Source: a virus
Taxonomy: Duplodnaviria > Caudoviricetes
DNA: 64,000 bases
Direction: 5' to 3' (one strand)
Virus record (IMG/VR): IMGVR_UViG_2836755666_000018
Location: 1 to 64,000 of that record
Shown one piece after another: positions 11,098 to 45,974 of the stretch. A program made the position numbers and the translations under genes. The number at the start of each line of letters is the position of its first letter. Positions within the stretch are counted from its first letter, which is position 1. Below the pieces are notes generated by a model. It made no database searches and had not been told where the DNA came from. It saw only the letters and a program-made list of their open reading frames with translations.

Positions 11098-11382
11098 TTA
11101 AGGCTTTGGGGGTACTGTTCCCCAGGTGAGATTATTCTGTTTCCCTTTTACCGTAATTTGAATGACTTCACTTGCTGGCGCACTAATCTCATTCATCTCC
11201 CAGCCTGACAGGGCCAAGATCATCGTGGCTGTCCGTTTATTGGGTAGCTCAATATAAAGCTGAACGGTTTCTCTATTTTGTGCCAAATTTAAAAATTCAG
11301 TAAAATCTTCATTTTCGGGGTCATCGATAAAACCTAGCGTCTTTTCCGGCCCTTCCGGTAAATCGGCTATATATTGTTTGTT
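11098..11382 (-). pseudogene. Major tail tube protein, 3' part (split by satellite A)
   Basis: Reads NKQYIADLPEGPEKTLGF...VIQITVKGKQN; joins in frame to 26583-26764 to give 152 aa. Confidence 0.9.
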
Positions 11383-11455
11383 TTTATTTCAAATTATTTA
11401 TATCTATTTGAATTATATATATTTATTTATATATACAGGCATAAAAATAGCTATC

Positions 11456-11479
11456 TGCAATACACATTGCAATACACAG
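11456..11479. repeat. Putative integrase arm-type sites (tandem GCAATACACA), left end of satellite A
   Basis: TGCAATACACATTGCAATACACAG; the same doublet occurs at 26433, 32303 and 47423. Confidence 0.75.
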
Positions 11480-11535
11480 GTTTTAATCAGAAGAGAAATT
11501 TGTTTAAGATTATCCGGGGCGCTAATAAAAACCCG

Positions 11536-13203
11536 CTACACACCATCAAATGAAGCTAATCGTTCTTTCTGCTCATCGGTCAGGCTAAAGGTAAAGTCCT
11601 CATGCTCTATCTGCCATGTACCAAAGCTCATCAAAAAGGCTAAGGCGGGGTCAATTTTGTTAGCCGATTTTTTCTTGTTCGGTTTGATATTGGCGTTTGC
11701 ATCGGTTTCCATTACCACATTTGCGATCGCCCACGCTAAAACGGGGTCACCGTTATGGTGGATATTCTGACGATTAACAAAGACTTCTGCTGACTTGGCG
11801 ACAGGGCTTAAACGCATATAGGTTTGTGGGAAGGGTTCAACATCTAAACCTGCACCCTGTAATTGCGTTCTGAGATGAGTGGCATTCCATGTATCAAAGC
11901 CAATGAGCTTAATTTCAAACTGCTCACTGTCTTTGAGAATATCATCTCTGATACGGTCATAATCAATACAATCGCCTTTAGTGGTTCTCAGCCAGCCTGA
12001 CCGTACCCATTGATGATAGATTGCTCTATTTTTATTCGCTGGACTCTGTAATTGCGCTTCGGGGATATAGTGACGGCTCAATAGCAAGAGCGCATTTTCT
12101 TGTGGGAAGGTATAACAGACGCTAGTAATATCGTTTGTTGAGGATAAATCCATCCCTGCATAACAGGTTTGTCCCTTTAAATCCGTTTCCTTGTAGTCCC
12201 GTTGACAGGCAGCCCAAGCCCCTTCACCCATCCACGGCGTTTGACCCTGACACCAGATATTAAATCGTTTGGTTAACATCTCTGTCCATTGTGAGGGAAT
12301 TCCCCTTGCTTTTTTAATCGTATCGTTCAGGGCATGACTTTCTACAGAGACATTAAGATTAGGATTGGCTTTAACCCAGTTATGCTCATCATCAAGCTCA
12401 CCGTCTTCGTCTAGTTCATAAATCAGGGCAAAGAGTGATTCATTCTGCGCTTCACCGTCCAATATCTGACAACAATAATCATAGTGCTGTTTACAGGCTG
12501 AAATAACATTGCTCCCTGCGGTGGTAATGGCAAAAAGTAGTGCTTCAGGGCGTGCCCCCATCCCTAACTCAAGCGCGGAATAAACCGCATTATCAGGGTG
12601 TAAATGATACTCATCGACAATCGCCAGACTCGGATTAGTCCCTTCGATTGTTGCCGCCTTAGCTGCCAGAGGTTTTAGCAAACTGTTATTTTTAGGATAA
12701 ATTATTTTATGTTGCTGGATAGTCAGCCGTTTCTTTAGGCTAGGGGATAGCAAACACATCTGACGGGCATCATCAAAAACAATGCGTGCCTGGTCTCGAC
12801 TCACGGCTGCTGTATAAATATCCTGTTGACCCCCTTCCATGATTAAAAACCAGTTAGCCAGTATTGCAGCTAATGTAGACTTAGCGTTCTTTCTTGGCAC
12901 TTGGATATACGCACTACGATATTTTCTTCTTCCCGTGCTAACTTCTTTGAATCCTAAAATATTCGCTATAGCAAATTGCTGCCAAGGTTCTAATTGAATA
13001 GGCTTGCCTCGAAGATGTCCTTTGACATGGGGGCAGAGACTGGAAAAAGCGATAAACCGTGCTACCGTTGGCGTATCGAAGGTATAAACAGGATTATTGA
13101 GGTCATTAAAATAACGATTAACCGCCTGTTTTAAGCGTTTACAGGCCGGAATATCGCTATTTCTGACGCGCTCAGCGTATTGATGCCAATCGGTCAAGTT
13201 CAT
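11536..13203 (-). CDS. terL: Satellite A terminase large subunit
   Basis: L.PWQ.F, Walker A PRKNAKS, Walker B VDEYH, ITTAG, G.DLS, KIDP motifs. Confidence 0.93.
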   Translation of the reverse strand: MNLTDWHQYAERVRNSDIPACKRLKQAVNRYFNDLNNPVYTFDTPTVARFIAFSSLCPHVKGHLRGKPIQLEPWQQFAIANILGFKEVSTGRRKYRSAYIQVPRKNAKSTLAAILANWFLIMEGGQQDIYTAAVSRDQARIVFDDARQMCLLSPSLKKRLTIQQHKIIYPKNNSLLKPLAAKAATIEGTNPSLAIVDEYHLHPDNAVYSALELGMGARPEALLFAITTAGSNVISACKQHYDYCCQILDGEAQNESLFALIYELDEDGELDDEHNWVKANPNLNVSVESHALNDTIKKARGIPSQWTEMLTKRFNIWCQGQTPWMGEGAWAACQRDYKETDLKGQTCYAGMDLSSTNDITSVCYTFPQENALLLLSRHYIPEAQLQSPANKNRAIYHQWVRSGWLRTTKGDCIDYDRIRDDILKDSEQFEIKLIGFDTWNATHLRTQLQGAGLDVEPFPQTYMRLSPVAKSAEVFVNRQNIHHNGDPVLAWAIANVVMETDANANIKPNKKKSANKIDPALAFLMSFGTWQIEHEDFTFSLTDEQKERLASFDGV

Positions 13204-13537
13204 CTTCTTCTTGCATTTCTACCGGATTACGGCGACGTGATACGGGGTCAAAACCTAATAGTGAGGCCATTTTTATCATGGTTTTTTCTGCCTCGGCTTT
13301 TGCGCTTAGTGCGGGGTTCCTACTTTCGCTTCCCTGACTGTTGGCGATACTAAATCCGCGTTCTGCGAGGTCTGCAACGGCTTTTCGGTAAATGGAATAG
13401 TTGACGCAATACAGCTCAAAGCTACTCCAATCAGTGGGGTTCAGGTCGTTACGCTCTGCAACGAATTTTGCCTTAGCTTTCCATTCTGTAGTAGCAATCT
13501 CATCAAGATAGCTAGGGGCTTTGGGTGCTCTTGCCAT
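13172..13537 (-). CDS. terS: Satellite A terminase small subunit (P27 family)
   Basis: P..P.YL..IA..EW, NPAL, LGFDPVSR motifs. Confidence 0.9.
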   Translation of the reverse strand: MARAPKAPSYLDEIATTEWKAKAKFVAERNDLNPTDWSSFELYCVNYSIYRKAVADLAERGFSIANSQGSESRNPALSAKAEAEKTMIKMASLLGFDPVSRRRNPVEMQEEDELDRLASIR

Positions 13538-13564
13538 AATCTATTGTTTTCCTTATTGTTTTAT

Positions 13565-13652
13565 TTTCAAAAAAATTACTGCGCATAAAAATTGGATTGA
13601 CGTGCGGTCCCAGCGCAATAGGGGGTTGTCATATTTAACTCCCCCACCCCCT
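13565..13652 (-). other. Putative cos packaging region of satellite A
   Basis: GGGGGTGGGGGAG...GGGACCGCACG...TTTTTATGCGC between HNH and terS, the HK97/cf-PICI cos position; near-identical copy at about 34405-34495. Confidence 0.55.
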
Positions 13653-13777
13653 ACTTCCAAGGCTGATTCCTAAAACATTCCATTAGCTCACGGTCACGCT
13701 GAGTCAATCGTTTAACGTAGGATTTATTCGCGCTTGGCTTAACGCGTCGATAACCTTGGCTATGTCTAAGTAATCCC

Positions 13778-14248
13778 TTAATCAATTGATTTATCTGATA
13801 TTCGTCCATTAAGGTTATACTCGTGTATCCAGTCATTACGATGAGCAGCTTTTTCTTCCTGCTCACGGAACATGCCAGCTTTACGCTGTGCTTTAGTTAT
13901 TGGATCTTGCTGAATAATTTTGCGGTTATGACATCCCTGACACAATGATTGATGGTTATCTTGCCACCAGAACAGTACATCGCTATCTCCATCGATTGGG
14001 ATGATATGGTCAACGATTTTAGCGGGTGTATATATCCCCTGACTTTCGCACTTCACGCAAAGAGGATGCTCCTTCAAATAAATCAGACGATATTTAGCCC
14101 ATTGGCTGGAGTAGCCACGCTGGGTATGCGTTCCTCGTTGTTTTTCTACTCTGCGTCTGGCTGCTCGTTTATGCGCCTCGCACTTACCCGATTTCACTCG
14201 GGTACTACAGCCTGGCTCTGTACATCTTTTTAATGGTTGATACGGCAT
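13778..14248 (-). CDS. Satellite A HNH endonuclease (terminase cofactor)
   Basis: C..PGC, HPLCVKC, VDHIIP, N.QSLC..CHN.K. Confidence 0.9.
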   Translation of the reverse strand: MPYQPLKRCTEPGCSTRVKSGKCEAHKRAARRRVEKQRGTHTQRGYSSQWAKYRLIYLKEHPLCVKCESQGIYTPAKIVDHIIPIDGDSDVLFWWQDNHQSLCQGCHNRKIIQQDPITKAQRKAGMFREQEEKAAHRNDWIHEYNLNGRISDKSID

Positions 14249-14551
14249 TTAATACACTCCAATATCTCGATACACTGACCATAACGATTTAATCGTAAAG
14301 GGGACTTCTTTAAGCTCAACATCTGTTGCCATTTCCCGATTCTCATAGAGCAATCCGATATAGAGCAAACACCCAACCTTAATTGCTGGCGTGAATGTCA
14401 ATCCTTCATCAAACCGTTTGCCGATATGTTGTTGACAGGCTTCAAGTGCTGCTTCGGCATACGTGGTTAATAATTTATCATCCAGCGTAAAACTCTCTTC
14501 TAATCGACAATGCTGTTTGATTTCATTTAAAGGGATTTTTACATTAATCAA
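14249..14551 (-). CDS. Satellite A head-tail connector (gp6-like)
   Basis: L.EIKQHCRL..DD.LL..Y..AA, LYENRE motifs. Confidence 0.88.
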   Translation of the reverse strand: MINVKIPLNEIKQHCRLEESFTLDDKLLTTYAEAALEACQQHIGKRFDEGLTFTPAIKVGCLLYIGLLYENREMATDVELKEVPFTIKSLWSVYRDIGVY

Positions 14552-14882
14552 ATCGTCCTCCTCCCTTGCAAATCAATTCTAATCTTGATTGGCGTGCATC
14601 GGATAAAACAACGGCTATCTCAAATCGAGAACCCAGTGTATTAGCACCTTTATACACAATGGCGTTGTCAATCGTGATATCAGGACGATAACGCATCCAA
14701 ATCTTGACGATGGCTTGAGGATAGCGAGTACCAAAGGTTAATAACTCCTGACCGCGTAGCGCTTTTACTTCTGCCCAGACATCTTCAACATCTACCCAGG
14801 TTACTCGCTGGTCACCTAGATTACCGTATGTAATCTCTTGTTTCTGAATCGTCACACGATGTCTTAATCGTCCTGCTCTCAT
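14544..14882 (-). CDS. Satellite A head closure / head-tail adaptor
   Basis: MRAGRLRHRVTIQ, VWAEV, MRYRPDI motifs. Confidence 0.88.
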   Translation of the reverse strand: MRAGRLRHRVTIQKQEITYGNLGDQRVTWVDVEDVWAEVKALRGQELLTFGTRYPQAIVKIWMRYRPDITIDNAIVYKGANTLGSRFEIAVVLSDARQSRLELICKGGGRFD

Positions 14883-16099
14883 GCGTTGTCCTCCGCATGT
14901 TTCTTAACCTCAATATGCTGTTTCCACGCCTGACTAAATTCATCACCGCCATCACGAGGCGGTAAGCCTTCCCGTTCACGGGCTTCATTGGGGCACATCA
15001 CACCGGATTTAATCGCCGTTTCATAACTTAAGAAACGCTCTCTTGGGTTGGCTCTGAGTAAATCGGCGGTGTCAAATTCCACTTGGTAACGCATACCGGA
15101 TTGCGGAACATTAAGTAGTAGTGCCGATTTGATTTGCTGTTCGAAATTCGCTAACCAAGGGCGCATGGTAATGGTTAAAAACGCGCGGCTGGCTTCACTA
15201 AAATTACTGTAGGTACTGTTGGAATATTCTTGCAGAAAAATAGGGCTGACATTAAACATGCGGGCGATATCTTCTATCGTAAAACGGCGGGAAGCTAACC
15301 ATTCTGCATCCTGATTACTCATGCCTAATTTTTCATATCCCATTCCACCTTCAAGGATTGGCACTTTACCCGCATTTTTTGCCCCTCGATAACGTTCAAG
15401 CGCGTCAAGGGCTTTTTGCCCTTTGGCATCATTCAGCCACTCATTGGATTTAATAATCCCTGCTGCCATCATGCCATCTTTCATCACACTCGCGCCGTGG
15501 CGCTGTTGGGCTAGTCCTAAACCTAATGTCTCCCGACAAATCGTAATCGGTGAACGTCCCATAAACCCATCATCCGTGGCGTAACGTAAATGTAAGATTT
15601 CTTCTTGCAGACAGATACGGACTTGACCACTGTAGGGCTCGGTTATCGTATAACGGTAACGGTGCTCACTTAATCGTTCAGGTACAACCGCACTCGGCGG
15701 ATAAGGATGTAATGAAGCGGGCTGTCCGTCTTTACCCCATGTGATAAGCGCATAGGCATTACCATTGAGTAAGCAATGGCGCATTAGGGTTCGTTTAAAC
15801 TGGAAAGGTGTTTGACAATCATTTGGTTTTTCATTGAGCAAATAATCTACCACGTGGTTACTTAGCCATTCCCGTGATTCCATACCTTTATCATTGTGTA
15901 CCCGATATAAAAAACAGGGCATCGTCGCCACCGCTTCACTAATCACCGTAACGGCATTGATAACAGCGGGTAAGCCTTCTGCGGTGATCGGTGAGACATA
16001 TTCGCCTGACCGACTGTTAGGAATGCCAGCCAGTGACAGGAACTCATCAATACTAAAGCTGCGTTCTTCTGCCTTTTTATGTCTGAATGGCCACATCAT
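14879..16099 (-). CDS. Satellite A portal protein (HK97 family)
   Basis: LLNGNAY, EILH, G.SPI, ILEGG, IARMFNV, PNEAREREGLPP motifs. Confidence 0.92.
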   Translation of the reverse strand: MMWPFRHKKAEERSFSIDEFLSLAGIPNSRSGEYVSPITAEGLPAVINAVTVISEAVATMPCFLYRVHNDKGMESREWLSNHVVDYLLNEKPNDCQTPFQFKRTLMRHCLLNGNAYALITWGKDGQPASLHPYPPSAVVPERLSEHRYRYTITEPYSGQVRICLQEEILHLRYATDDGFMGRSPITICRETLGLGLAQQRHGASVMKDGMMAAGIIKSNEWLNDAKGQKALDALERYRGAKNAGKVPILEGGMGYEKLGMSNQDAEWLASRRFTIEDIARMFNVSPIFLQEYSNSTYSNFSEASRAFLTITMRPWLANFEQQIKSALLLNVPQSGMRYQVEFDTADLLRANPRERFLSYETAIKSGVMCPNEAREREGLPPRDGGDEFSQAWKQHIEVKKHAEDNA

Positions 16100-16650
16100 T
16101 CCACCTCGGATAATTGGAGCCACCGATGATGTAAATACGTGGGTTTGGAGCGATTAACATTGAGTGAACGCTTGGCAATTTCGACACCACTTTCAGGGTA
16201 AGCGGGTAAACTGGTGATCGTAATTTCGAGCAATTCAGCCTCAATAACCGTTCTAAGATAAGGCTTTTCGCCAATTTCCCAATGGTCTTTTATCGTCCTA
16301 AACGCAAAGCTCATGCCGGAGATATCCCCCCGTTCAACCAGTGTCAGAACATCTCGGCCTAATTGCGTATCAGGCGGGGTAAGCGCAAACCGTAACCCCG
16401 TTTCATCTTCAGCCAGTTGTAACGTACTCGACGCGGTACGCCCTAACAGGTTGGTCACGTCATGTTCAAACAGACACCTTACATCTGTCTCTTTTCCCAG
16501 ACTGTTTTTAAACGCATACGGGGCGAAGGTTTCAATAAATTCACCCCATAACAGTTGTGAGCGGCTATTCCACTTAACCGCATAGCCTGTTAGCTTTTTT
16601 TCATCAGCAGACAGGCTTGCCGTACGTATTTCAAAATCGGTTGATTTCAT
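16096..16650 (-). CDS. Satellite A prohead protease (HK97 family)
   Basis: L.GYAVKW, FEHD..LLGRT, GMSFAF, EITITSLPAYP motifs. Confidence 0.92.
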   Translation of the reverse strand: MKSTDFEIRTASLSADEKKLTGYAVKWNSRSQLLWGEFIETFAPYAFKNSLGKETDVRCLFEHDVTNLLGRTASSTLQLAEDETGLRFALTPPDTQLGRDVLTLVERGDISGMSFAFRTIKDHWEIGEKPYLRTVIEAELLEITITSLPAYPESGVEIAKRSLNVNRSKPTYLHHRWLQLSEVE

Positions 16651-16655
16651 GGATA

Positions 16656-17810
16656 TTAGCCTCCGGCTCCTTTCGCCTTGACCTCAAGCACTTTAATTGC
16701 ATTGGAATCGACTAATCCACCGCCTAGATATTTATCAGTATGGATCTTGATAAAGCCAGGCTCAGTAATATTGTCAGGCCGTGTACGTGTGCCCGTCTGA
16801 TGGTCAACAATGGTGTAACCGCGTTTAAAGTCACCGAGGGCTATCACATCATCATTCATAAATTCAAGGTAATGAACCGATAAACCCAACAGACTATCAG
16901 GATCACCCACTTGTAACCGTTCACGCCAGATATAATCACCATTGCCATTTTTCAATTTTTGTACTTTGGCAGCCGTGTTTGAGTTCATCACCCAGACGGC
17001 ATTTTTACGGTATTTATTTTTTAGCGTGAATTTCAGGTCAATCAGACTATCCGCTTCCAGCTTGGTCACTTCCTGCTTTTGCAATGTGCCAAAGCTGCGG
17101 TCTTTATCTGCTTTCGTATCACGGGGATAGGATAGAAATCCTTTTGCTTTTTTTGTGCCGTTACCACTGACTAAATCGGTTTCTTCGGTATCAACAAAGG
17201 TGTCAGCAATTTCACGGGTCAACCAGCCTAAAATATCGACATCACTAAAATCGAGGATTTCCTGAGTGGTTTTAGGATAGGCATAGACAGGAAATAACTT
17301 GATACTGACTTCTTCCAGTTTAGGGGTAGCGGTTTCGGTGCGGGCTTTGCCTTCTTCACCGTGATTGATCACGGCACCACCAACAGACACCAGTTGCTTA
17401 TATTCGTTGCTGTGAGTGGTCTTGATAGTACAGATTTTACGCATGACGGACTCATCACTGAGACGTTGCATAATCTGTTTATTTAGTTCAGGAATAACGG
17501 TATAGCCACCATCAGCCGGAACCCCAGTCGAAAGTCCGCGCGTTTCCCCTGTCAAAACATAATGCCTTAATGCATCATTTCCCTGTTCTTTTTGTACAGG
17601 CTTTGCCGCTAATGTTCTTTCTTCATCAGCAAGGCTTTCATAACGGGCAATTTCAGTATTAAGGGTTTCCGACTGATGACGCAACGCATCAAAGTTTTTA
17701 GCTTCATCTTCGGTCAGTGTTCGTTTTTCGGTTTCTGCTAAGGTCAGCATTGATCGCATTTGTGCCGTTAAATCGGCTTTTTGCTGACGTAATTCAAGTA
17801 GTCTTTTCAA
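16656..17810 (-). CDS. Satellite A major capsid protein (HK97 fold)
   Basis: Coiled-coil delta domain, DGGYTVIP, G.G...KG, W.MN, GDF..GY; probable TTG start at 17810 after a GGAG RBS. Confidence 0.93.
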   Translation of the reverse strand: MKRLLELRQQKADLTAQMRSMLTLAETEKRTLTEDEAKNFDALRHQSETLNTEIARYESLADEERTLAAKPVQKEQGNDALRHYVLTGETRGLSTGVPADGGYTVIPELNKQIMQRLSDESVMRKICTIKTTHSNEYKQLVSVGGAVINHGEEGKARTETATPKLEEVSIKLFPVYAYPKTTQEILDFSDVDILGWLTREIADTFVDTEETDLVSGNGTKKAKGFLSYPRDTKADKDRSFGTLQKQEVTKLEADSLIDLKFTLKNKYRKNAVWVMNSNTAAKVQKLKNGNGDYIWRERLQVGDPDSLLGLSVHYLEFMNDDVIALGDFKRGYTIVDHQTGTRTRPDNITEPGFIKIHTDKYLGGGLVDSNAIKVLEVKAKGAGG

Positions 17811-18244
17811 GGTTGGCTCCTGCATGCAGTGATTGTCTTAACTGAACATGCAGAAAAAAAGCAGCTAAGGGAAGGTGATATAAACCTTAACCGCTTTTAG
17901 TAACCATGAATATTTCAAAATACACCTGCATGAATCAGGAACCTCAATTTAACATGATGAAAAATAACAGGAAACAACCTCACAGGAAGGCAAAAAAGAT
18001 GAGAAAACATGAGAACCAATAATTTACGCAACTTTACATTAGTTATTTATCAAATATCATCAGCTAAAAATTTAACAGATGTTCTTATCAATTTATCATT
18101 CTCCTAGGTCACTGTTGTGATGACCTCGAAATAACCCGCTAACCCTTTGATTTACTGCAAGTGGTCAAATTGACCCCTTGCTAGAATATTCAATTCATCA
18201 AGAAAATTTCTAATGACATAGTGAGTAATCTGTTATGACTATCT

Positions 18245-18754
18245 TTATTGATTTGAATTCTGAATAAAACGATGAGTCGCGTACCCTTGTGGCTCTTCTG
18301 ATGGTATTTCATCTAAATAAAAGATAGCGTTTTCATTGATATAAATATCAAAAAATTGACACCCCTCCTTACCGTAGATGAATTTTCCTGTTCTTCTCTC
18401 AAAATGGCAGCTACCGCATGCCCATAAAATATATTTGAAAAAAGGTCTATAAACTTGAGGCATTGAATACCGTGGTGGGAAGCTTTCCACAAATCTTTTG
18501 CTTTTGGCTGGTATCATTTCGGGCTGGTAGTTCCACCAAACACTAATACGTAATTCATCATAACCCAGATCAAACCAATTAATAATTGTTCGTCTGCCAG
18601 CAATAATCAATTCACGATATCCATGTCTATTTTTTGTTCTATCATCAGCTGATCGCCCGTTCAAATCAAAGTGTCCTGATTTAATAGCTTCATTTAACGC
18701 AATAACCATCAGCTTTAAAATACACACTTGCTTTTCTGTTTTTTTCATTCGCAT
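18245..18754 (-). CDS. Satellite A cargo protein of unknown function
   Basis: 169-aa AT-rich ORF between the origin and the capsid operon; absent from satellite B. Confidence 0.6.
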   Translation of the reverse strand: MRMKKTEKQVCILKLMVIALNEAIKSGHFDLNGRSADDRTKNRHGYRELIIAGRRTIINWFDLGYDELRISVWWNYQPEMIPAKSKRFVESFPPRYSMPQVYRPFFKYILWACGSCHFERRTGKFIYGKEGCQFFDIYINENAIFYLDEIPSEEPQGYATHRFIQNSNQ

Positions 18755-18865
18755 ACCTATTATTTATTCATGCTTGGTCACCGTCGTCATGACCTATTTA
18801 ATTTATCCGATTTCCAAAATCAGTAAATTTATACAGTCAAAATACGCCCTAGCTGAAAAATTCCA

Positions 18866-18972
18866 AAAAACCTATACTACCTGTACAAACAGAAATAAAT
18901 ATATTTAATTTCAATAAGTTAACTATGTACAGGTAGATGAAAATACCCCTAAATACCACTAAGAACCTGTAC
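18866..18972. other. Putative origin of satellite A (ACCTGTA-type iterons)
   Basis: Several ACCTGTAC/GTACAGGT-like repeats around an AT-rich, IHF-like stretch directly downstream of the primase gene; related inverted copy at 24486-24596. Confidence 0.6.
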
Positions 18973-19097
18973 ACATTGATTGAGCCTAGGAACTAAGCAC
19001 CGCGTTAGAGTAGATAACATCGATTTAAAATTTAATTATCGCTCTCCTTGGACAAGGAAGGTAACCCGGAAATTTTATTTTTAGGGGATCTTAGCTT

Positions 19098-21326
19098 TTA
19101 GAATACATCTTTTAACTCCATACCAATCATATCGGCAAATCTGATCCGTAATTCATCAACACTCGGTAGTTCATAAACAATTCCTATACCGCATCCCCTA
19201 CGTCCTAGTTTATTTAGCCCCATTCTGATCATCGTTTTCCCAACGCGACTACGGGCGGCGGCTTCGGTTTCCGGTTCACCATTACTTTTACACCAGAATA
19301 AATAGTTATCGATTAATTCAGTTACTGGAATTCGTACCTTTCGATCAAACGGTTCATCTTTTGATAATTCGGCATACAGGTAAGCATATAACCCCGTTAA
19401 ACCAAAGAGTATTTCTTCTTTAAGTGCCTCGGTTTTCGGTGCGCGGTGGCGATCAAAACCTGAAATATCATAATGCTGTAAATAATAAAGTAGCTTGGCT
19501 GCACCTTTATCATTCACCCATTGGTATAAGTTATCAAAATAGCTTTTATCTTGTGCTCTACTGCCGTCAGGCTCTAATACTAAATATCGCCTCTCTTTTA
19601 TTCCTGCCTTCAATGCCTGAGTACTATTACTTGCAAATATCAAACGTGAAAAATTAGCCATTGGCTCAGGATCAATTCCTTTCCGCTCAAGGTTAAACGT
19701 AGATTCACTAATAATGCCATTGAGTTTTTCGCCATCTTTAGCACTGGCTACTGTCGCTTCATCAGCAAATACCAACAATTTATTTGCTAACATGGCATTG
19801 AACTTTGCGGTAAGGTGCTCTGCACCGTTAACCTGTACGCCGTATTGCCCTAAAATTTGGAGTAATGGCTTTACAAAAGTTCCTTTTCCTGCCCCTCTGA
19901 CCGATTTCATAGCGATAGCCACGGACGGTTTTTCATCCGGTTTCTGGATTAAATGCGCCATCCATGCAATTACATATTGATACGCTATTTCATCACCTGA
20001 ACAAATTATGTGGCGGATATGATTTAAATAAAGGCTACAATCCCCCTCAACAGGTTTAACCGATAACCCCATATACAGGTTGTAGACAGTATCAGGACAT
20101 TTTGACGGTTCAGGGTAAAAACCGACTCCATTAGGTTTATAGTTCTTCCCTTTCCATTTTAACCAGGCATCACCTAATGATAGCTTTTTGGCAATGCGCC
20201 CTTCATGCAGGAAATAGTTTTTAAATTGCGCTAATTCCTCAAAGGTATGCATTAATCCATTAACTTGACAAGGTTTAAGGGTGACAACTCTGTGTTTTCC
20301 GCCGATCGTAACATGGGTATAAATGCCATTCATCTTTTGAAGTAAAGCGAGTTCGTTAGCCGTAATCACTTCTCCACTTCCTAGCTCGTAGGGATCAAAA
20401 TCGGTTACTTCATCAAATTCAACTTGATACGCCCCCTCTATAAACGCCTGTTTTGCTGCCTCAATCCCATGTTGCTGACGGTAATCATCCCAATCAGCTT
20501 TTTCTTTGGTTGGCGGTATGGTGACCCAACCATTAACCACTTTTGCGGTTTTCTCCGCTTTAATCTTGCCAATATTGGCTTCATCGGGCTTAACATCATT
20601 ATCCGCCGCAATAATGATTTTTGATTGGGGGTAATGCTTCCTGACCCATGTAGCAACGGGTAATAAATTACCTTCATCAAGCGCTGCCAGTACCACGCCT
20701 TCATGTAACTGGCTCACGGTTAAAGCGGTTGCATATCCTTCGGCAATTAACACCGTATCGGGCGTTCCAGTGAAATCAACGACGGGAATATAGCCGCCTT
20801 TTTTCTTTGTGCCTGAGATAAAGCGCTTTTCACCGTTAGCTCTGATAATCTGAGCACCCAGTAATTTATCACCCTGTTTTACGGGTAATATCATCGAGCC
20901 ATCTTTTAATAGCTTAACTGAACAGGTATGACCTTTGAGTATTAAGTACTGAGATTGACCTAATGTGGCTTCTTCTAATAACTTTGCGGATTTTTTAATA
21001 GCATCCGTTAAAGGCGGTTTATCTGATATAGTCGTTTCTTTTTGGACAGGTATTGAAATAACCTTAGCCACTTCCTTAGCCGCTTCCGTGACATCAACAT
21101 TAAATAACCGTCTCACTAAATCCAGTCCGTCACCACTACCACACTGATTACAGATAAATGTGCCGTTACCTTCCTTATCATCAAAGCGAAAGCGGTCTTT
21201 ACCCCCACAAGCTGGACAAGCGGTATGACGATTCAAGGGGACTTCTGCCCCCAGTGATGCTAATATACCTTGCCAACGTCCTGTGGCCTGCTGCTTAACC
21301 TGACGGATTAAATCAATATTTCTCAT
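19098..21326 (-). CDS. Satellite A primase-helicase (zinc-binding + TOPRIM + DUF5906/SF3-like helicase)
   Basis: CPACGGKDRF..C..CG.GDG, IAEGYAT, AADND, DWDD; helicase GAGKGTF, FADEA, IFASN. Confidence 0.9.
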   Translation of the reverse strand: MRNIDLIRQVKQQATGRWQGILASLGAEVPLNRHTACPACGGKDRFRFDDKEGNGTFICNQCGSGDGLDLVRRLFNVDVTEAAKEVAKVISIPVQKETTISDKPPLTDAIKKSAKLLEEATLGQSQYLILKGHTCSVKLLKDGSMILPVKQGDKLLGAQIIRANGEKRFISGTKKKGGYIPVVDFTGTPDTVLIAEGYATALTVSQLHEGVVLAALDEGNLLPVATWVRKHYPQSKIIIAADNDVKPDEANIGKIKAEKTAKVVNGWVTIPPTKEKADWDDYRQQHGIEAAKQAFIEGAYQVEFDEVTDFDPYELGSGEVITANELALLQKMNGIYTHVTIGGKHRVVTLKPCQVNGLMHTFEELAQFKNYFLHEGRIAKKLSLGDAWLKWKGKNYKPNGVGFYPEPSKCPDTVYNLYMGLSVKPVEGDCSLYLNHIRHIICSGDEIAYQYVIAWMAHLIQKPDEKPSVAIAMKSVRGAGKGTFVKPLLQILGQYGVQVNGAEHLTAKFNAMLANKLLVFADEATVASAKDGEKLNGIISESTFNLERKGIDPEPMANFSRLIFASNSTQALKAGIKERRYLVLEPDGSRAQDKSYFDNLYQWVNDKGAAKLLYYLQHYDISGFDRHRAPKTEALKEEILFGLTGLYAYLYAELSKDEPFDRKVRIPVTELIDNYLFWCKSNGEPETEAAARSRVGKTMIRMGLNKLGRRGCGIGIVYELPSVDELRIRFADMIGMELKDVF

Positions 21327-21673
21327 GATTTATCCTCCTGAGCAGCAGCGCTATCCGCCATGTCATTCATCATGTCAACCCACATATCAAGCCCCATCCC
21401 TGACAACTTGCCGTTCTCAACGCACAGGTCAAGTATTTGCTCAGCGACGGATTCCCAAGATTTGTATTCATCTTTCAACGGCGCTAACACATAAGTATCA
21501 ACCAGCTTCCTAATCCCTTTTACACCGTCGATAATATCAACATGAATAGCGTCATCTTCGGTGTATAAGGTAAACCAGTCTCCGCCGTATTCCTCTCTCA
21601 CATCCTGATAGATTGCCTTAGCAAATGCATTGATTCGTGCATTCAGGCGAAAGTTTAAAGTGATTAATGTCAT
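21323..21673 (-). CDS. Satellite hypothetical protein
   Basis: Coupled ORF in the operon; homologue at 41966-42317. Confidence 0.6.
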   Translation of the reverse strand: MTLITLNFRLNARINAFAKAIYQDVREEYGGDWFTLYTEDDAIHVDIIDGVKGIRKLVDTYVLAPLKDEYKSWESVAEQILDLCVENGKLSGMGLDMWVDMMNDMADSAAAQEDKS

Positions 21674-21682
21674 CTCTCCCCC

Positions 21683-22225
21683 TTAATGCACCACAGCGAC
21701 AGGCTGAACGCTGCCGTTAAGCACATCATCGATAAATAGGTTATGGAGTTGGGCTAAAATTTCTTGCCCCATAAAGGAAAGTTTTAAACACTTAGCATTA
21801 CTGACTTCTAGCATGTTTCGATAAAACGTCAGAATATATTGCTCTGCGTCTTCCTTGGTCTCCCTAGAATAAAAAGCGCCTTCAATATTATTCTCCATGC
21901 CCATGCGTTCAGTCGCCAGAAAAATAGGAAGGTGATAGTTTTTATGGGTGTAGTAAGGCTGACCATTTTTAACGTTGCATTGCATAACGAAAATAGCCGA
22001 AATAACACAGCGTACGGACGTGATCACATCGGCTTTGTTAAAATCGTCTTTTTTCCAGTATTCATCGATTAATTTCAGGATTAACTTAGGGTCATCATCC
22101 CAATGACCCTCATTAACACGATTAGGGATATCCGCCACAGGAATCGTTATTTTTTCAATATGCCCCTGTTCGTTTAAATGTGTAAGGCATACATTTTTGC
22201 CAATGGTTTTTATTTTATAGCTCAT
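21683..22225 (-). CDS. Satellite hypothetical protein
   Basis: Coupled ORF; homologue at 42327-42867. Confidence 0.6.
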   Translation of the reverse strand: MSYKIKTIGKNVCLTHLNEQGHIEKITIPVADIPNRVNEGHWDDDPKLILKLIDEYWKKDDFNKADVITSVRCVISAIFVMQCNVKNGQPYYTHKNYHLPIFLATERMGMENNIEGAFYSRETKEDAEQYILTFYRNMLEVSNAKCLKLSFMGQEILAQLHNLFIDDVLNGSVQPVAVVH

Positions 22226-22458
22226 CTTGACCCCTTCCTTTTTTTAGCCTGTTTGCGCTTACACTTTTTCGACTTAGTGCCTGTGTGCTTTGAGCCACTG
22301 ACATAAGTGTTAATCCCAGGATTTCTTATAAATTGGGGCTTCACTTTTCCCTTAAGAAAAGCCCGTGTATTCTTAGCGTTAAAGGTATTATCCCGCCCTG
22401 AGTTATAGCCATCGCTAAAAGTAATTAATGGTTGTTCGTCATATTGTGTCATGTTCAT
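22222..22458 (-). CDS. Satellite small basic protein
   Basis: ATGA-coupled ORF with Lys-rich C-terminus; homologue near 42864-43099. Confidence 0.55.
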   Translation of the reverse strand: MNMTQYDEQPLITFSDGYNSGRDNTFNAKNTRAFLKGKVKPQFIRNPGINTYVSGSKHTGTKSKKCKRKQAKKRKGSR

Positions 22459-22772
22459 CTCACGCCCTCCGATACAGGGAACCCTTCACGCTGATAGAGT
22501 GTGAACTGGGCGTTTTCTGCGTTGATAATGAGTGCCTGAGCAATTTTAGGTAAGCACATCAACGCCTCACTCATCCGGCATAAATCCGCTTTCGCCTGAC
22601 TATCGGCATAGTTTTCATTGCCACATGCCCAATATGCGCATTCACCAAAGGCTTTTAGCCCTGACATAATCCCGTCAAACGCGGCATCACAAGCGCCTTT
22701 CATTTCTCTTAGCTCTTTAGTGCTCATGGCTTGTAAATTATCCGGTATGAGGTAATGCTGAATATCAGCCAT
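22455..22772 (-). CDS. Satellite hypothetical protein
   Basis: Coupled ORF; homologue at 43096-43413. Confidence 0.6.
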   Translation of the reverse strand: MADIQHYLIPDNLQAMSTKELREMKGACDAAFDGIMSGLKAFGECAYWACGNENYADSQAKADLCRMSEALMCLPKIAQALIINAENAQFTLYQREGFPVSEGVR

Positions 22773-23367
22773 GCAGAGCCTCCTTAGCGAAATCGCCTAA
22801 ATCACAGATAGACAGTTGGGAAAGTTCAATAACGGCACGCGTTGCCGGACGAAGGCGCTTAAGCTCTCTACGGCGTAGGGTCATCGCTGCACTACCTGGC
22901 TTACCATGACCAAGATAAGAGTCTTTCTCAGCCTTGGCGACAAGGTGTTGTGCTTCTTCCGGTTTCATCTGGCTTAACTCTTCAATTGAAGGGATATCAA
23001 CATGACGGAGTTCACCTAAGGTGTTACGGCGGAAATAGCTATCTATCATCTCATTCTGTACATCCCACGATAGCGAATCGTTGAACGGTTTAACGATAAG
23101 TAAATAACCTCTTTCGGTGATAAGCAGTCCCCTAGCGGTACGTTTCGGGAAAACGTCTTTTAGCCACATCGTATGTTTAACAGACGATGTCACATCAAAG
23201 AAATCTTTACCTTCAACAAAACGAGAACGATGACGATTAAACGTCTGCCTTGCTGTTCCTTTAGGGCGATCATGTGCCTTATCAATCATGGCAAAGGTCA
23301 CAACACGCTTACCTTGGTACTCCACAACGGGCATCGCACGATTATGGATAGCGACAAAATTACGCAT
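22765..23367 (-). CDS. ORF6N (KilA-N-like) DNA-binding / antirepressor-type protein
   Basis: VVEYQGKRVVTFAMID..H.RP.GTA...FNR.R..F.EG.DF, TE.GYL..VK.F.D..SW.VQ motifs. Confidence 0.8.
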   Translation of the reverse strand: MRNFVAIHNRAMPVVEYQGKRVVTFAMIDKAHDRPKGTARQTFNRHRSRFVEGKDFFDVTSSVKHTMWLKDVFPKRTARGLLITERGYLLIVKPFNDSLSWDVQNEMIDSYFRRNTLGELRHVDIPSIEELSQMKPEEAQHLVAKAEKDSYLGHGKPGSAAMTLRRRELKRLRPATRAVIELSQLSICDLGDFAKEALHG

Positions 23368-23593
23368 GAGCCACCTCCTGACGTTGAGAAGCGGAGCACG
23401 CTATGATGCTTTGGGGTGTTATGGGCTTACGGCCTGACCAGACAAGCCGATCACCTTTGAACAGCACATGAAATAATCTGCGCTCACGACGGGTTAATGA
23501 CACTTTGCCGTAGGGAATGTTGGAATCTAGAGGGATAATCCAGTAAGTATCTGTAAATTTAGGGTGAGTTTGGGTAGACTTATACGAAGCCAT
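23360..23593 (-). CDS. Icd-like host cell-division inhibitor (putative)
   Basis: TQTHPKF start and LVWSGR end resemble PICI/P4 Icd-like proteins; GAGG RBS before ATG 23593. Confidence 0.55.
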   Translation of the reverse strand: MASYKSTQTHPKFTDTYWIIPLDSNIPYGKVSLTRRERRLFHVLFKGDRLVWSGRKPITPQSIIACSASQRQEVAHA

Positions 23594-23660
23594 AACTGTT
23601 ACCTCAGTTAACATTGTGGTTAGATGCTCTGCAAGTGTTTGCGCACTGCGGGGCATTGTC
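23588..23660 (+). ncRNA. Putative SymR-like cis-antisense RNA over the icd-like start codon
   Basis: Two hairpins (23593-23610, 23624-23656); G-U pairs form only on the + strand; TAGACT -10 at 23575; covarying copy at 44568-44640. Confidence 0.5.
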
Positions 23661-23726
23661 TTACTTATTGCTATGCAATAGTGTACATTGGTAATCTCAA
23701 TATCTAATATATACAGGAAAAAACCA

Positions 23727-23903
23727 ATGTCAACCAAAGAACACCAAAAAGAAAGAATCGTTGTACAATTGCGATTAGATTCTAGCTTATCTGAACGCCT
23801 TAACTTAGCAATGAAAGAGGACGGAGATGACAATAAAGCTGGTTGGATAAAACGCTTACTTCGCAGAGAACTAGACAAAAGAGGCATCCCCCCCAAAGGC
23901 TGA
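23727..23903 (+). CDS. Ribbon-helix-helix (CopG/Arc-like) regulator, divergent from the icd-like gene
   Basis: 58 aa; alternating beta-strand IVVQLRL followed by two helices (WIKRLLRREL); AGGA RBS. Confidence 0.65.
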   Translation: MSTKEHQKERIVVQLRLDSSLSERLNLAMKEDGDDNKAGWIKRLLRRELDKRGIPPKG

Positions 23904-24485
23904 GATTGCTTAGAGAAATATTCCGCTGGTTGCCCCTGAGCCAACCCAACCAACCCGATATTATCGGGTAGCCTCATCATCAGAGAAATATTTCCTTGAT
24001 GTTCTGAGTGACCATGAGCCACTCGCTTTGTTTGTTTATTAACCGTTCCTCTTAATGATGAATGGTTATTTTTTGCACTACTCAAATTTGAGTAGATGAA
24101 GTATTGTAAACTGCGATTAGCGGGTTGTTTCTCGTACTGCACAAATTGAATCAACCTATTGTTTTTAATGCTTTCTTTTGTGCGCACCTCTCTAACGGCT
24201 TGTACACCCATGTTGTTTAATTTCTGAACTACACTTTTTGTGTAGTGACCTACACTTTTTTTGTAGGTCGACTTGTTCAGGCGATTAAATATATCGCCCC
24301 CCTGATTTTTGGCATAAAGAAGCCCTTCACGGTTATTCACCGTGTTTTGAATGTTCATATTGAACCTTATTTAATTAATTGAGCGGTGAGTCATGCTGCT
24401 TGGTCAGAAAAAAGGGGACTTTCGGTAATCACTGCCTACCAGGGAAAGGAAGGAATTTTTTTCTAACCGACTTCCTCTTTAAGTT

Positions 24486-24596
24486 GTTACAGGTCTTTAT
24501 AGGTTTTTAGAGGTATTTTATCTACCTGTACCTAATTAACTAATTGATATTAAATAGATTAAATGTAATTGGTACAGGTGATACAGGTTTTTTAGG
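24486..24596. repeat. Second iteron cluster of satellite A, inverted relative to 18866-18972
   Basis: TACAGGT/ACCTGTA repeats with an IHF-consensus match; reverse complement aligns to 18866-18972 over about 110 bp. Confidence 0.65.
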
Positions 24597-24627
24597 TTTT
24601 CTGCCAAAAAGGGTATTTTTCCTCTAA

Positions 24628-24912
24628 TCAATGAGATTGACGGCTATAAGGATTATTCACGTTCTTCACCTCTGGCGGATTGCGTGCCCACCATAGAACA
24701 TCGCTTAATAGCCATGAGACGGAGTTCTTTCCCATAGGTATACGCTTAGGAAATTTTCCTTCTTCCTCTAACACCCATCGACGGGAACGGGATAAACCGG
24801 ATATCTGCTTACATTCGGCTTCCCTGATTCGTCGATCATACTTTTGACCGTATTCATCTAAAATAAATTGTCTTTCTTCTCTGGTAGGTTCAGTAAATTT
24901 AACGGTTATCAT
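24628..24912 (-). CDS. alpA: AlpA-family regulator (protein identical in both satellites)
   Basis: DRRIREAEC..ISGLSRS.RW.LE..GKFPKRI..G..SV.W..SDV..W. Confidence 0.88.
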   Translation of the reverse strand: MITVKFTEPTREERQFILDEYGQKYDRRIREAECKQISGLSRSRRWVLEEEGKFPKRIPMGKNSVSWLLSDVLWWARNPPEVKNVNNPYSRQSH

Positions 24913-24928
24913 TATTTTCTCTCCATAA

Positions 24929-24952
24929 TAAAAAACCCCGATTAACGGGGTT
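24929..24952 (-). terminator. Rho-independent terminator between the two alpA genes
   Basis: AACCCCG-TTAAT-CGGGGTT followed by a T run on the minus strand; copy at 45917-45941. Confidence 0.7.
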
Positions 24953-24984
24953 CAATTCATGACATTTAATTTTATACGTTTTAG

Positions 24985-25209
24985 TTATTCAGGTTTCCAT
25001 GTGCCGTTTACCCAAGCCTGAACCTCGGATAATCGGTATAGTTTTGTTTTGGGCCCATAAACGTATCTTTTAGGAAATCTGCCCATTTTTATCATATAGT
25101 GCCTTGTTGATGCTCCTATGCTGGTTAACCATTTACATTCACCTTCTTTTATCATTCTATCTATCTCAGGCTCTAACAATAATTCATCTTTACTCATTAT
25201 TTTTATCAT
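24985..25209 (-). CDS. AlpA/excisionase-like protein next to the integrase
   Basis: DRMIKE.EC.WLT, GRFPKR, YRLSEVQAW. Confidence 0.8.
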   Translation of the reverse strand: MIKIMSKDELLLEPEIDRMIKEGECKWLTSIGASTRHYMIKMGRFPKRYVYGPKTKLYRLSEVQAWVNGTWKPE

Positions 25210-26411
25210 TGGTTATCTGCCTCTATAAATGTATTCAGATAGCGTAACCAATCCTCTAATGCCTGAGTTTTTTCATTCATATATTGGCTACGGTTATATA
25301 TTCCCATCACCCCAGGCAATGTATGTCCTAACAATTGTTCAATAACATAAATGTTAACACCCTTGTCCGCCATATTTGTTGCTAATGTTCGTCTCATATC
25401 ATGTAAACACCATGATCTAGCATGTCCTAATTTCTTCCATAACCTACCCATCGTTGTACTGATAGGTACTTGATTGTAGAGTTTACCAAGGATTAAATTA
25501 GTATTATTTACCGCTTTTAAATTGACTAGCCACTGTCTTATGTCTTTTGGTATTGGGCGAATGATTTCTCTACCATTTTTGCTATTCTCTTTGGGTACTG
25601 TCCATATCCAGTTTTGAAAATCCCATTCATCCCATGTCGATTTTCTAATTTCAACCATGCGACAACCAAATAAAATAGCCAGCAATAAAATATGTCTATA
25701 ATGCGATTCAATGACGGTATTGTTGAGTTCTTTATTAGCCAAACGCCACACATCCCTTAACTCATTTTCTGTTAAGACTCTGTCTCTTTTCTTTGCATTT
25801 TTGCCCATATCAGACAACGTAAAATCGTCTAATTCATGATTAACGGCATAACGTCTTACCCGACAAAATCGCAAAGCTTGTTTTACATCGAGGAATGTCC
25901 CACCGGAAATAACGGGGGCTTTTCTTTTTAGTTTATCAAATAACGATAACCATATATCTGCTTTACATTCGCTTAATGGCATATCACCGATATGAAGATA
26001 AATATACCGTTTCAAATTGTTTTGAACTTTTAGCCAATCTTTCCTTTTATCCTTAACGTAGTGTTCAATCCAATATTCAAGCGCATCTTTCACCGTCACG
26101 GGTTTTAGTGTTGTTTCTTTTTGAATTTTAATATAAATACGAGGGTCTTTATTTTCTACTAGCCATTCTCTACACTGATTTCTTACCTTCCTTGCCTGTT
26201 TTAACGACATATCAGGATATTTACCTAATGTTAACCAAATAGGGGAACTATTGCGATCACCTAATCGATAAAAGAAGACAAAGCTGACCATCCCACTTTT
26301 AGATACCCTGATTGATAATCCCCTTCCATCAGCAACGAGTAATTGCTTTTCTCTTAGGCTACCGCTGAGTGCTTTTAATCGTTTTTCACTGAGCTTATTT
26401 TCTGCTGCCAT
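25206..26411 (-). CDS. int: Satellite A tyrosine integrase (P4-like arm-binding domain)
   Basis: ADGRGL..R, LGKYPDMSLKQAR, GCR..EI, HDMRRT, LGH, Y catalytic motifs. Confidence 0.95.
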   Translation of the reverse strand: MAAENKLSEKRLKALSGSLREKQLLVADGRGLSIRVSKSGMVSFVFFYRLGDRNSSPIWLTLGKYPDMSLKQARKVRNQCREWLVENKDPRIYIKIQKETTLKPVTVKDALEYWIEHYVKDKRKDWLKVQNNLKRYIYLHIGDMPLSECKADIWLSLFDKLKRKAPVISGGTFLDVKQALRFCRVRRYAVNHELDDFTLSDMGKNAKKRDRVLTENELRDVWRLANKELNNTVIESHYRHILLLAILFGCRMVEIRKSTWDEWDFQNWIWTVPKENSKNGREIIRPIPKDIRQWLVNLKAVNNTNLILGKLYNQVPISTTMGRLWKKLGHARSWCLHDMRRTLATNMADKGVNIYVIEQLLGHTLPGVMGIYNRSQYMNEKTQALEDWLRYLNTFIEADNQ

Positions 26412-26432
26412 AGCGTTAACTTCTCATTTCTA

Positions 26433-26455
26433 GCAATACACATTGCAATACACAG
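26433..26455. repeat. Putative integrase arm-type sites, right end of satellite A
   Basis: GCAATACACATTGCAATACACAG; IHF-consensus match AATCAATAAATTA near 26520. Confidence 0.75.
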
Positions 26456-26582
26456 AGTTCAGTACCAATGAATAAACATGAAATAACACCAGTACATAAA
26501 TTAATAACTAATTATTTAAAATCAATAAATTACTTAAAACATGGAAACGCGAATATGCGTAAATAATTACTATGTTACACAG

Positions 26583-26764
26583 TGTTTGTTGGTGTCAAGT
26601 AATGTGGTGCAGTCTATAAAGCTTCCTGTTAATCCTGTTGCGCCTATTGCTCTACAGGTATCCAGAAGTTTCATTGCAGTCACTGCATCCCCCACTTTGC
26701 CAAATTTCACTACGGTATTTTCGGGTAACTTAGCGTATTCCGGCGAACTTTTTCTTTTAGCCAT
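26583..26764 (-). pseudogene. Major tail tube protein, 5' part (split by satellite A)
   Basis: MAKRKSSPEYAKLPENTVVKFG...IDCTTLLDTNK; major-tail position after the HK97-gp10 gene. Confidence 0.9.
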
Positions 26765-26781: not shown

Positions 26782-27195
26782 TTAACGATGTTTTTCAATG
26801 CTGGCGCGAATTTCTGATGCTAAGGTATTAAGGATAAATTCACGGTGATAATCCAATGCGGGTCGGATAAAAGGGCGCGCTATCTGTTTAACCGTACCAA
26901 ACTCTTGGGCGCGTGCTTTTATCGCCTGTTGTTTTGAAGGGCCAACTCTCACTGTGACGACGGTTTGTGTTTTTTTGTCCTTTATTCTGCTGTTAGTGCG
27001 GATTTTAATGCTATCTCGCATATGTTCGCCTGAATGAATCGCATCAAATCCCGAATGGCCTTTCATATCGGCGAGCACCGGTTTCATTACTTCACTCCCT
27101 GCTTTGCGTAAAACCTCAACCGCAACTTCATCGCCCAATTTTTTTAATACCGATTCAAGATCGCTTAATCCCTTCACTTCTACTCGATTTCTCAT
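26782..27195 (-). CDS. HK97-gp10 family tail component
   Basis: GL..L...L..L, SG.H.RDSI, QEFGT....ARPFIRPA. Confidence 0.9.
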   Translation of the reverse strand: MRNRVEVKGLSDLESVLKKLGDEVAVEVLRKAGSEVMKPVLADMKGHSGFDAIHSGEHMRDSIKIRTNSRIKDKKTQTVVTVRVGPSKQQAIKARAQEFGTVKQIARPFIRPALDYHREFILNTLASEIRASIEKHR

Positions 27196-31494: not shown

Positions 31495-32235
31495 TTAAAG
31501 CGATCTCAGTCCGTGGGAACTAATAATTTCAGAAAGCGAAGGTTGATGGTTCCCCCCATTGACTAATAATCGACTCATTGCGGTAAAAAGCGCACAAGGG
31601 CCATCAATCTTAGCTTCCGCCGTTGACTTATTTGGGAAGATGTTGTCATTTTTGTCAGGTCTTACCGTCACATTAGACATCATCCAGTTCATTACTGGGT
31701 GTTGGTTGTGGTGCAGTTTCCCGGCGTATACCAATGCTTCCACTGCTTTCATTGCTTCTGACAGATTTCTGACTGTTTGAGAAACTTCAACCAGTGGTAG
31801 GCCTTCTTCTGCGAGTGATAAGCCAAATTGCGTTGCACTCCAGGGATCAAATCCTATTTCTTTTAATGTTTGTCCTGAGACCCACGTAATGATTTCCTCT
31901 TTGATTTGATTGTGATCAACCACTTCACCATCAGTCAGGGTTAATACCCCCATCGCTGACCATTTCCGATAGAGTTCTGCAATTTGTCGAGAACAACGCG
32001 CTAGCCTGTCCTCTGGCAGCCAGAACCTGGCATCAGTATGAACATGACCATTGTTTGCCTGCCAGACTTTGACGGCCGCACAAATATCAATTTTGTTAGC
32101 CAAATCAACACCGACCCACATCGGATAGGTTTTAGCTCGTGCATTGGGGCGACAGCAGAGATCTGTCCATTTGAGCATATCCATCCAGGCTGACTCTGCA
32201 CTCACCCAAACGTTGGCGTGCTTTGTTATAAAATT
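31495..32235 (-). pseudogene. terL: Helper terminase large subunit, 3' (nuclease) part, split by satellite B
   Basis: NFITKHANVWV..WMD, GVDLA, FDPW.A, KIDG motifs; joins 47574-48581 in frame. Confidence 0.92.
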
Positions 32236-32302
32236 ACAAACAATTATAATTTAACTATATATCAATAAGTTAATGAATATTTATTATTTATTTATAGCTA
32301 TC

Positions 32303-32326
32303 TGCAATACACATTGCAATACACAG
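32303..32326. repeat. Putative integrase arm-type sites, left end of satellite B
   Basis: TGCAATACACATTGCAATACACAG; IHF-consensus match TATCAATAAGTTA near 32260. Confidence 0.75.
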
Positions 32327-32382
32327 GTTTTAATCAGAAGAGAAATTTGTTTAAGATTATCCGGGGCGCTAATAAAAACCCG

Positions 32383-37491: not shown

Positions 37492-37495
37492 GGCG

Positions 37496-45900: not shown

Positions 45901-45974
45901 TATTTCTTCTCCATAATAAAAAAACCCCGATTAACGGGGTTCAATTCATGACATTTAATTTTTATACGTTCTAG

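Follow-up and report, generated by a model that had tools for sequence, protein, structure and literature searches.

Excisable elements that split genes include the skin element in sigK of Bacillus and the comK prophage of Listeria. Within prophages, a related arrangement was described by Tommasini, Mageeney and Williams (2023, NAR Genom Bioinform 5:lqad036; PMC10111431, parts of whose main text and supplement are drawn upon throughout) for helper-embedded phage-inducible chromosomal islands (HE-PICIs), in which restoration of an interrupted prophage late gene by excision, to the benefit of the satellite, is termed 'regulated gene integrity'. For the model member of this family, Eco567.11capE of Escherichia coli, which occupies a lambda-like capsid gene, the measured order of events is excision of the composite, replication, and then precise excision of the satellite. 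The same source places 97% of HE-PICI cases in terminase, portal, protease and capsid genes, and reports a doubled motif, tgTGTATTGCantgTGTATTGCa, that occurs only in HE-PICIs, with one copy upstream (81 +/- 2 nt) and the other downstream (132 +/- 2 nt) of the centre of the attachment site of the circular form (attP). A second class of satellites, the capsid-forming PICIs (cf-PICIs; Alqurainy et al. 2023, 10.1101/2022.09.08.507074, for which EcCIEDL933 is the model), is described in the available parts of that report as islands of 10-15 kb that encode an integrase, an AlpA-type regulator, a replication module and their own heads, lack tail and lysis genes, and use a chromosomal attachment site never occupied by prophages. 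Here we analysed a 64,000-nt stretch of the virus record IMGVR_UViG_2836755666_000018 (positions 1 to 64,000, hereafter the window), in which the tail tube gene of a siphovirus-type prophage is interrupted by a 15,208-bp element; the prophage belongs to Arsenophonus nasoniae, a symbiont of insects. With a probability of roughly 0.85, we identify this element as the HE-PICI Ana29.15.V_Phage_TTP_13_49, integrated in the tube gene and carrying capsid-forming gene content, with a gene-restoring excision that we infer from the family.

The element occupies positions 11375-26582, counted with one copy of its core, and interrupts a minus-strand gene for a tail tube protein (Phage_TTP_13). A direct repeat, TGTTTGTT, lies on either side of it, at 11375-11382 and 26583-26590 of the plus strand. 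This 8-nt core (aacaaaca) reads AACAAACA in the direction of the tube gene and TGTTTGTT on the plus strand. The two parts of the gene and the two core copies are arranged as follows.

26583..26764, minus strand: tube gene, N-terminal part of 60 codons and 2 nt, with the core at its end; PF16463 match at 26570-26764, profile positions 2-52, E 3.6e-14
11098..11382, minus strand: tube gene, C-terminal part, with 91 codons and a stop after the core; PF16463 match at 11101-11373, profile positions 52-137, E 1e-40
26583..26590, no strand assigned: core copy at the integrase-side junction, identical, by eye, to the junction that PMC10111431 prints in its supplement
11375..11382, no strand assigned: core copy at the TerL-side junction; the homology of an empty paralog (L087) to the window begins exactly at 11382

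The open frame of the N-terminal part extends only four codons into the island (HCVT) before a stop at 26570, and the C-terminal part has no start codon of its own; thus no replacement fragment is supplied at either end. When the element was removed by script, the flanks of 182 and 277 nt joined into 459 nt encoding 152 amino acids with no internal stop. This rebuilt protein shares 137 identical residues, with one gap column, with the intact 153-residue copies found in the contigs L087 and L093, and in alignment its two halves are colinear with the tube proteins of the phages CharmingMan, PY54, phiKO2 and Providencia PSTRCR_117lys. The halves meet at T-N-K-Q, where the reference tube proteins have D-T-N/S-K-Q, so that the point of integration falls in codons 59-61 of the major tail gene. 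A sequence-only reading of this DNA had proposed a satellite with its core in the N-K-Q codons, an in-frame sum of 182 and 277 nt, no replacement gene fragment, and a tube gene that excision would rebuild; each of these points is borne out by the two Pfam halves, the stop-free frame and its colinearity with intact homologues. The core would not stand out by its count, since TGTTTGTT occurs eight times in the window against 4.78 expected, a number of at least eight was reached in 11 of 100 shuffles, and this difference is not significant. Its meaning comes instead from where the two flanking copies lie.

Contigs from four public sequencing runs (X1, X2, X5 and X8) were compared with positions 10300-30200 of the window. 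In X8, a contig of 2,324 nt joins 11374 directly to 26583, skipping 15,208 nt, with eight letters that fit both sides. Over its flanks of about 2,270 nt only 10 other letters differ from the window, and the depth of X8 over the integrase region is near zero. This contig shows a near-identical helper whose site is naturally empty, and it establishes both the boundaries of the element and the 8-nt core. The occupied state is likewise found outside the record. Contigs of X1 and X2 cross the integrase-side junction (24944/24959-26612), and in the draft genome of A. nasoniae DSM 15247 a contig (L007/L089) is 100% identical over the gp10-like gene, the tube N-terminal half, the core and the integrase, while another (L088) stops exactly at the TerL-side copy of the core. 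Among the contig pieces listed, to which 366 further pieces must be added, none bridges 11375-11382 from the island side; reads seem to be cut at 11408-11442.

The body of the element has the organization of an HE-PICI. It lies inside a prophage late gene that is disrupted without replacement sequence in attP, its integrase, AlpA and primase genes are co-oriented with the interrupted gene on the minus strand, and its genes fall into four ordered zones: integration (Int, AlpA), Bro, replication and late. Its features, identified by profile searches, are listed below.

11383..26582, minus strand: satellite body, with all annotated genes on the strand of the tube gene
25206..26408, minus strand: tyrosine integrase with arm-binding domain (Pfam PF00589, PF13356)
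24985-25209 and 24628-24912 (within 24628..25209), minus strand: two AlpA-type excisionase/regulator genes (Pfam PF05930; PHROG 2790)
23360-24358, minus strand: repressor-like gene
22765-23367, minus strand: Bro/ORF6N anti-repressor-like gene
within 21323..24358, minus strand: small genes of unknown function, beside the ORF6N and repressor-like genes
19098..21326, minus strand: primase-helicase with zinc ribbon, Toprim and DUF5906 domains
16656-17825, minus strand: capsid (Pfam, PHROGs, as for the seven genes that follow)
16096-16650, minus strand: prohead protease
14879-16123, minus strand: portal
14544-14882, minus strand: head closure
14249-14551, minus strand: head-tail adaptor
13778-14248, minus strand: HNH
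13172-13537, minus strand: TerS
11536-13203, minus strand: TerL
26433..26452, minus strand: doubled TGTATTGC motif of the integrase-side arm, in the same orientation as the TerL-side copy and 130 nt away from the core
11457..11476, minus strand: doubled TGTATTGC motif of the TerL-side arm, 74 nt from the core

The arm motifs are a signature of the family. Four copies of the doubled TGTATTGC motif are present in the window where shuffling predicts none, two in this satellite and two in a second, related satellite described below; all are co-oriented, and both copies of the first satellite are perfect. Rebuilding attP puts the two copies at a distance of 212 nt in the first satellite and 213 nt in the second, as compared with the published sum of 81 and 132, which is also 213 nt (PMC10111431). 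In both satellites 130 nt separate the integrase-side copy from the end of the block of identity; the published split of 81 and 132 fits to within a few nt only, the placement of the attP centre not being stated in that paper. The integrase of the first satellite is 55% identical to that of the second, which is itself a listed HE-PICI. A 107-nt inverted repeat, 79% identical between its arms, was also noticed inside the first satellite, at 18865-18971 downstream of the primase gene and at 24488-24593 upstream of the AlpA gene, and the second satellite contains a related stretch of 45 nt.

In its late zone the element resembles a cf-PICI. At 15,208 bp it has the integrase, AlpA-type regulator and replication module of such islands, together with its own capsid, protease, portal, head-tail connectors, HNH, TerS and TerL, which form a head and packaging block at 11536..17825 on the minus strand. 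Neither Pfam nor PHROGs revealed a tail or lysis family among the open reading frames scanned, of which two (18245-18754 and 22222-22458) had no match and three others matched only families of unknown function. A capsid-forming satellite of PICI type, as the sequence-only reading had called it, is therefore well matched by the gene content, from which we infer that the element forms its own capsids and joins them to helper tails. It differs from the cf-PICIs in its attachment site, which lies inside a prophage gene. From the HE-PICIs in general it differs in another way: it shares with them, including the model 11capE, a short identity block, but unlike most of them it sits in a tail tube gene, a site group (V:Phage_TTP_13:49) for which one row was seen in the published supplement. 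Moreover, whereas induction of 11capE has been measured, the Arsenophonus element is known here from its sequence, and its late zone comprises a complete head and packaging set.

The element is a rediscovery: a 2023 paper (PMC10111431) already gives its 8-nt core and coordinates and the sequence of its junction, along with the concept behind it. That source lists Ana29.15.V_Phage_TTP_13_49 of A. nasoniae as an HE-PICI of equal length and equal core, and its printed junction matches positions 26650-26480 of the window by eye. It further assigns two HE-PICIs, A:Terminase_1:245 and V:Phage_TTP_13:49, to the helper Ana29.79.guaB, the first of which corresponds to the second satellite of the window (Ana29.15.A_Terminase_1_246.2; 15,353 nt, with the same 15-nt block), and the published gap of 5,639 nt between the two elements fits the window. 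As for the placing of the terminase group, the Discussion of the paper puts four A. nasoniae HE-PICIs at B:Phage_portal_2:241, whereas its Results and supplement, like the window, put A. nasoniae HE-PICIs in the large terminase (A_Terminase_1_245/246). Two proposals of the sequence-only reading do not stand as worded. Coupling of a late gene to excision was already in print as regulated gene integrity; and an 8-bp core, which that reading took to be short enough to escape island finders, is not unusual here. The identity blocks of on-target elements span 7-10 nt among the published rows seen (for example ttaccaa, cttcccgt and agccgaagca), and the failure of automatic mapping in Arsenophonus is attributed in the paper to the small number of reference genomes rather than to a short repeat. 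In its main text neither 'cf-PICI' nor 'capsid-forming' occurs, and the paper does not take up a dependence on tails only in combination with a tail-gene site.

How such an element would behave can be outlined from the family. As the junctions show, the tyrosine integrase of the element recombined the attP core (AACAAACA) with an identical 8-nt sequence in tube codons 59-61, splitting the gene and replacing neither part. By analogy with 11capE, induction would lead the integrase and AlpA to excise the element precisely and restore the tube frame, and this copy of the helper could not express its own tube gene before the satellite leaves. Co-oriented with the late operon, the satellite would be replicated, and perhaps transcribed, passively with the helper. 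It would then fill its own capsids by means of its own terminase; as no tail or lysis genes were found in it, its tails must come from a helper. In splitting a gene that precise excision would restore at a set time, the element is like other cases of regulated gene integrity. It departs from the sigK and comK cases in that the gene it interrupts is part of a second mobile element, and in that the satellite would be the one to gain.

The helper surrounding the insert has an HK97-like late operon comprising TerS, TerL, portal, protease, capsid, adaptor, head closure, terminator, gp10-like, tube, chaperone, tape measure, and tip and fibre genes, with the lysis, Q, replication and cI/cro modules further up. 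The features nearest the tube gene and the second satellite are as follows.

26782..27195, minus strand: HK97 gp10-like gene (tail completion/Neck1), identified by profile match just upstream of the tube gene
10460-10807, minus strand: tail assembly chaperone, downstream of the tube gene
7358-10243, minus strand: tape measure protein, downstream of the tube gene
32221..47588, minus strand: second, related satellite, 15,353 bp with one core copy, splitting the helper TerL
32304-32323 and 47424-47443, co-oriented: doubled TGTATTGC motifs of the second satellite

The order of a gp10-like gene followed by the tube gene is also found in the phages PY54, phiKO2 and CharmingMan. Between the tube and chaperone genes lies an open reading frame of 75 residues (10818-11045), which weakly matches the N-terminus of T4 gp9/gp10-like proteins and occupies the place of the small gene 13 in PY54. 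An Ail/Lom-type outer-membrane beta-barrel gene (5503-6039; compare lom in lambda) is present among the tail tip genes. The second satellite has a core of 15 nt, at 32221-32235 and 47574-47588, and separates an N-terminal part of TerL (47514-48578) from a C-terminal part (31495-32202). It shares 97% identity with the first satellite across the head and packaging genes; the figure falls to 94% in the stretch running from primase to Bro and to 77% at the integrase end.

As recorded, the genes for the helper capsid, prohead protease and tail terminator are broken, as are many in the second satellite. All four runs, however, have contigs that insert single letters at 27490, 27519, 29371, 29716, 29722, 29892, 29941, 30008 and 30012. 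These sites, in the helper tail terminator, capsid and prohead protease genes, all fall inside or next to a run of the letter concerned; the nine are among the indel rows listed (23 more exist), and contigs drop minor variants. When the nine letters were added by script together with ATTA after 28834, the protease opened into a frame of 230 amino acids and the terminator into one of 146, while the capsid remained in two frames. When the two satellites are compared, single letters account for 24 of 31 indel events, and nearly all of these adjoin a same-letter run. Since the short-read contigs contradict the homopolymer lengths of the record, most of the apparent decay of the helper and second satellite probably reflects homopolymer errors of the kind seen with long reads, although some of it may be real slippage in one prophage copy. 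The DSM 15247 draft cannot settle these frameshifts, as it has no match to 27300-30200 and matches 26591-32300 only at the ends. Two insertion sequences in the helper early region are damage of another type and may impair the helper: an IS21 element (istA/istB) at 55071-56856, and an IS3-family element at L173:3633-4792 (67633-68792 of the record), which stands beside a DNA polymerase A-like gene that reads in pieces.

To ask how widely the site is used, we surveyed 85 other tube-gene loci, consisting of the best 80 of 365 relatives in viral contigs, L087 and the four phages named above. The exact 8-nt core is present in nine of the 85, and the tube gene is split in none. Of 401 genomes of the taxonomic family, 22 contain a Phage_TTP_13 match, and a pair of half-matches is found only in the A. 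nasoniae draft; in one other genome the match starts at profile position 22. A close integrase (E <= 1e-100) is encoded in only one of 32 genomes of the genus, again the A. nasoniae draft. The nearest other integrases are 95% identical, in the same species, and then 59-60%, mainly in Salmonella. A scan of genome contigs with an alignment of 27 integrase sequences kept 80 loci, among which the tube N-terminal half lies beside an integrase only in L007, from the same species. Within these 85 tube loci and 401 genomes, the split site is found only in A. nasoniae. For the integrase of the first satellite the viral contigs yielded no pattern match, and for a Salmonella relative (P0005, 59% identical) they yielded eight, none of which was confirmed; a target site of these nearest integrases was not found. 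The Xenorhabdus loci of the scan encode integrases closer to that of the second satellite than to that of the first. A contig of Xenorhabdus kozodoii (L008) has an integrase at 6795-8003 with 75% identity to that of the second satellite, and then AlpA and a primase; some 2.8 kb upstream of the integrase there is a TerL-portal-capsid block like that of a helper. Probably a further helper-embedded satellite lies here, occupying a different late gene.

Several observations weigh against the reading as an HE-PICI that restores the tube gene by excision. In the isolate runs X1, X2 and X5 the empty-site joint has depths of 90.9, 198.3 and 511.6, respectively, as compared with 21, 58-67 and 106-112 for contigs specific to the satellite (18132-20448; 24944/24959-26612 or -26508), and is thus 3-5 times deeper than single-copy satellite DNA. 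The simplest reading of this excess is that it comes from other prophage copies and not from excision, and it points to several paralogous helpers with intact tube genes. Indeed, an A. nasoniae draft (G001) holds an intact, diverged tube paralog (L087), 86% and 93% identical to the two flanks and with a core that reads AACAAGCA, and the existence of such genes elsewhere in the species weakens any dependence of tail supply on excision. The sequence-only reading held that tails from this helper can appear only after excision, and named a second intact tube gene as the observation that would speak against it. Its claim holds in cis, for the gene of this helper copy, but not at the level of the cell, where that second gene is supplied by L087 and by the abundant empty-site joints. 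With intact genes in other helper copies, the block probably acts on this one prophage copy and not on the tail supply of the cell, and tube protein is probably provided in trans. Excision of the Arsenophonus element itself is argued from its family, and no circular (attP) joint appears among the contig joints listed, a blank that says little given that contigs drop rare forms. The two insertion sequences and the second satellite in TerL mean that the helper may not be inducible. Finally, the site is a singleton: with none of the 85 other tube loci split and split matches in only one of the 401 family genomes, recurrent targeting finds no support.

The same facts bear on three other explanations of the locus. 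If the insertion were stranded, the composite would be a decaying remnant from which nothing excises, and the tube gene would be dead in a dead prophage. The insertion sequences, the interrupted TerL and the genes broken in the record would all fit this, as would the truncated appearance of many HE-PICI helpers (PMC10111431). The first satellite itself tells against it, because all of its scanned genes, integrase and AlpA included, are open and full-length against the profiles and both of its arm motifs are perfect, while the breaks in the helper protease and terminator are reopened by the contigs and the indels between the satellites gather at homopolymers; we consider it unlikely that the element is stranded. 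Alternatively, the integrase might usually use another site and have landed once by chance on an 8-nt look-alike. Such an event would suit a singleton site and an 8-mer that is common in the window, and 28 off-target HE-PICIs are on record (PMC10111431). The same source, however, files this element as an on-target site group of its own, and the off-target rows seen in it share blocks of only 3 nt (cga, gaa) as compared with 8 nt here; there is no other known home site, a search of 32 genomes of the genus at E <= 1e-100 gave no other close copy of the integrase, and the core stands at the fixed distance of the family from both arm motifs. Together these make an off-target landing quite improbable.

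That the junctions are an artefact, created when repeated prophage and satellite copies were misjoined in a long-read assembly, might be suspected from the several near-identical helper and satellite copies in the genome and from the homopolymer errors of the record. Yet the integrase-side junction recurs without a difference in an independent draft and in contigs of two runs, a further contig ends exactly at the other core, and a misjoin would not be expected to place both breakpoints at one tube codon with a shared 8-nt core, so that an artefact is scarcely credible.

What this arrangement might do for the satellite is more tentative. The aspect that goes beyond the published account is that a satellite with a full head set, needing only tails, would interrupt a tail gene, a suggestion weakened by the intact paralogs. 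The satellite sits in a tail gene whose product every tail requires in many copies and its sister sits in the terminase; that this helper copy could then build no tails and package none of its own DNA until both had left, with the satellites passing a double checkpoint before the helper does, is a doubtful proposal. The analysis nevertheless adds to the published record in several ways. It cautions that apparent decay of the helper and second satellite is largely a matter of homopolymer lengths that short-read contigs contradict, and it shows the site to be still confined to A. nasoniae in the loci and genomes surveyed. In addition, it documents the naturally empty site of a near-identical helper, and it gives evidence that the occupied helper copy is accompanied by several with an unbroken tube gene, making the block local to one copy.

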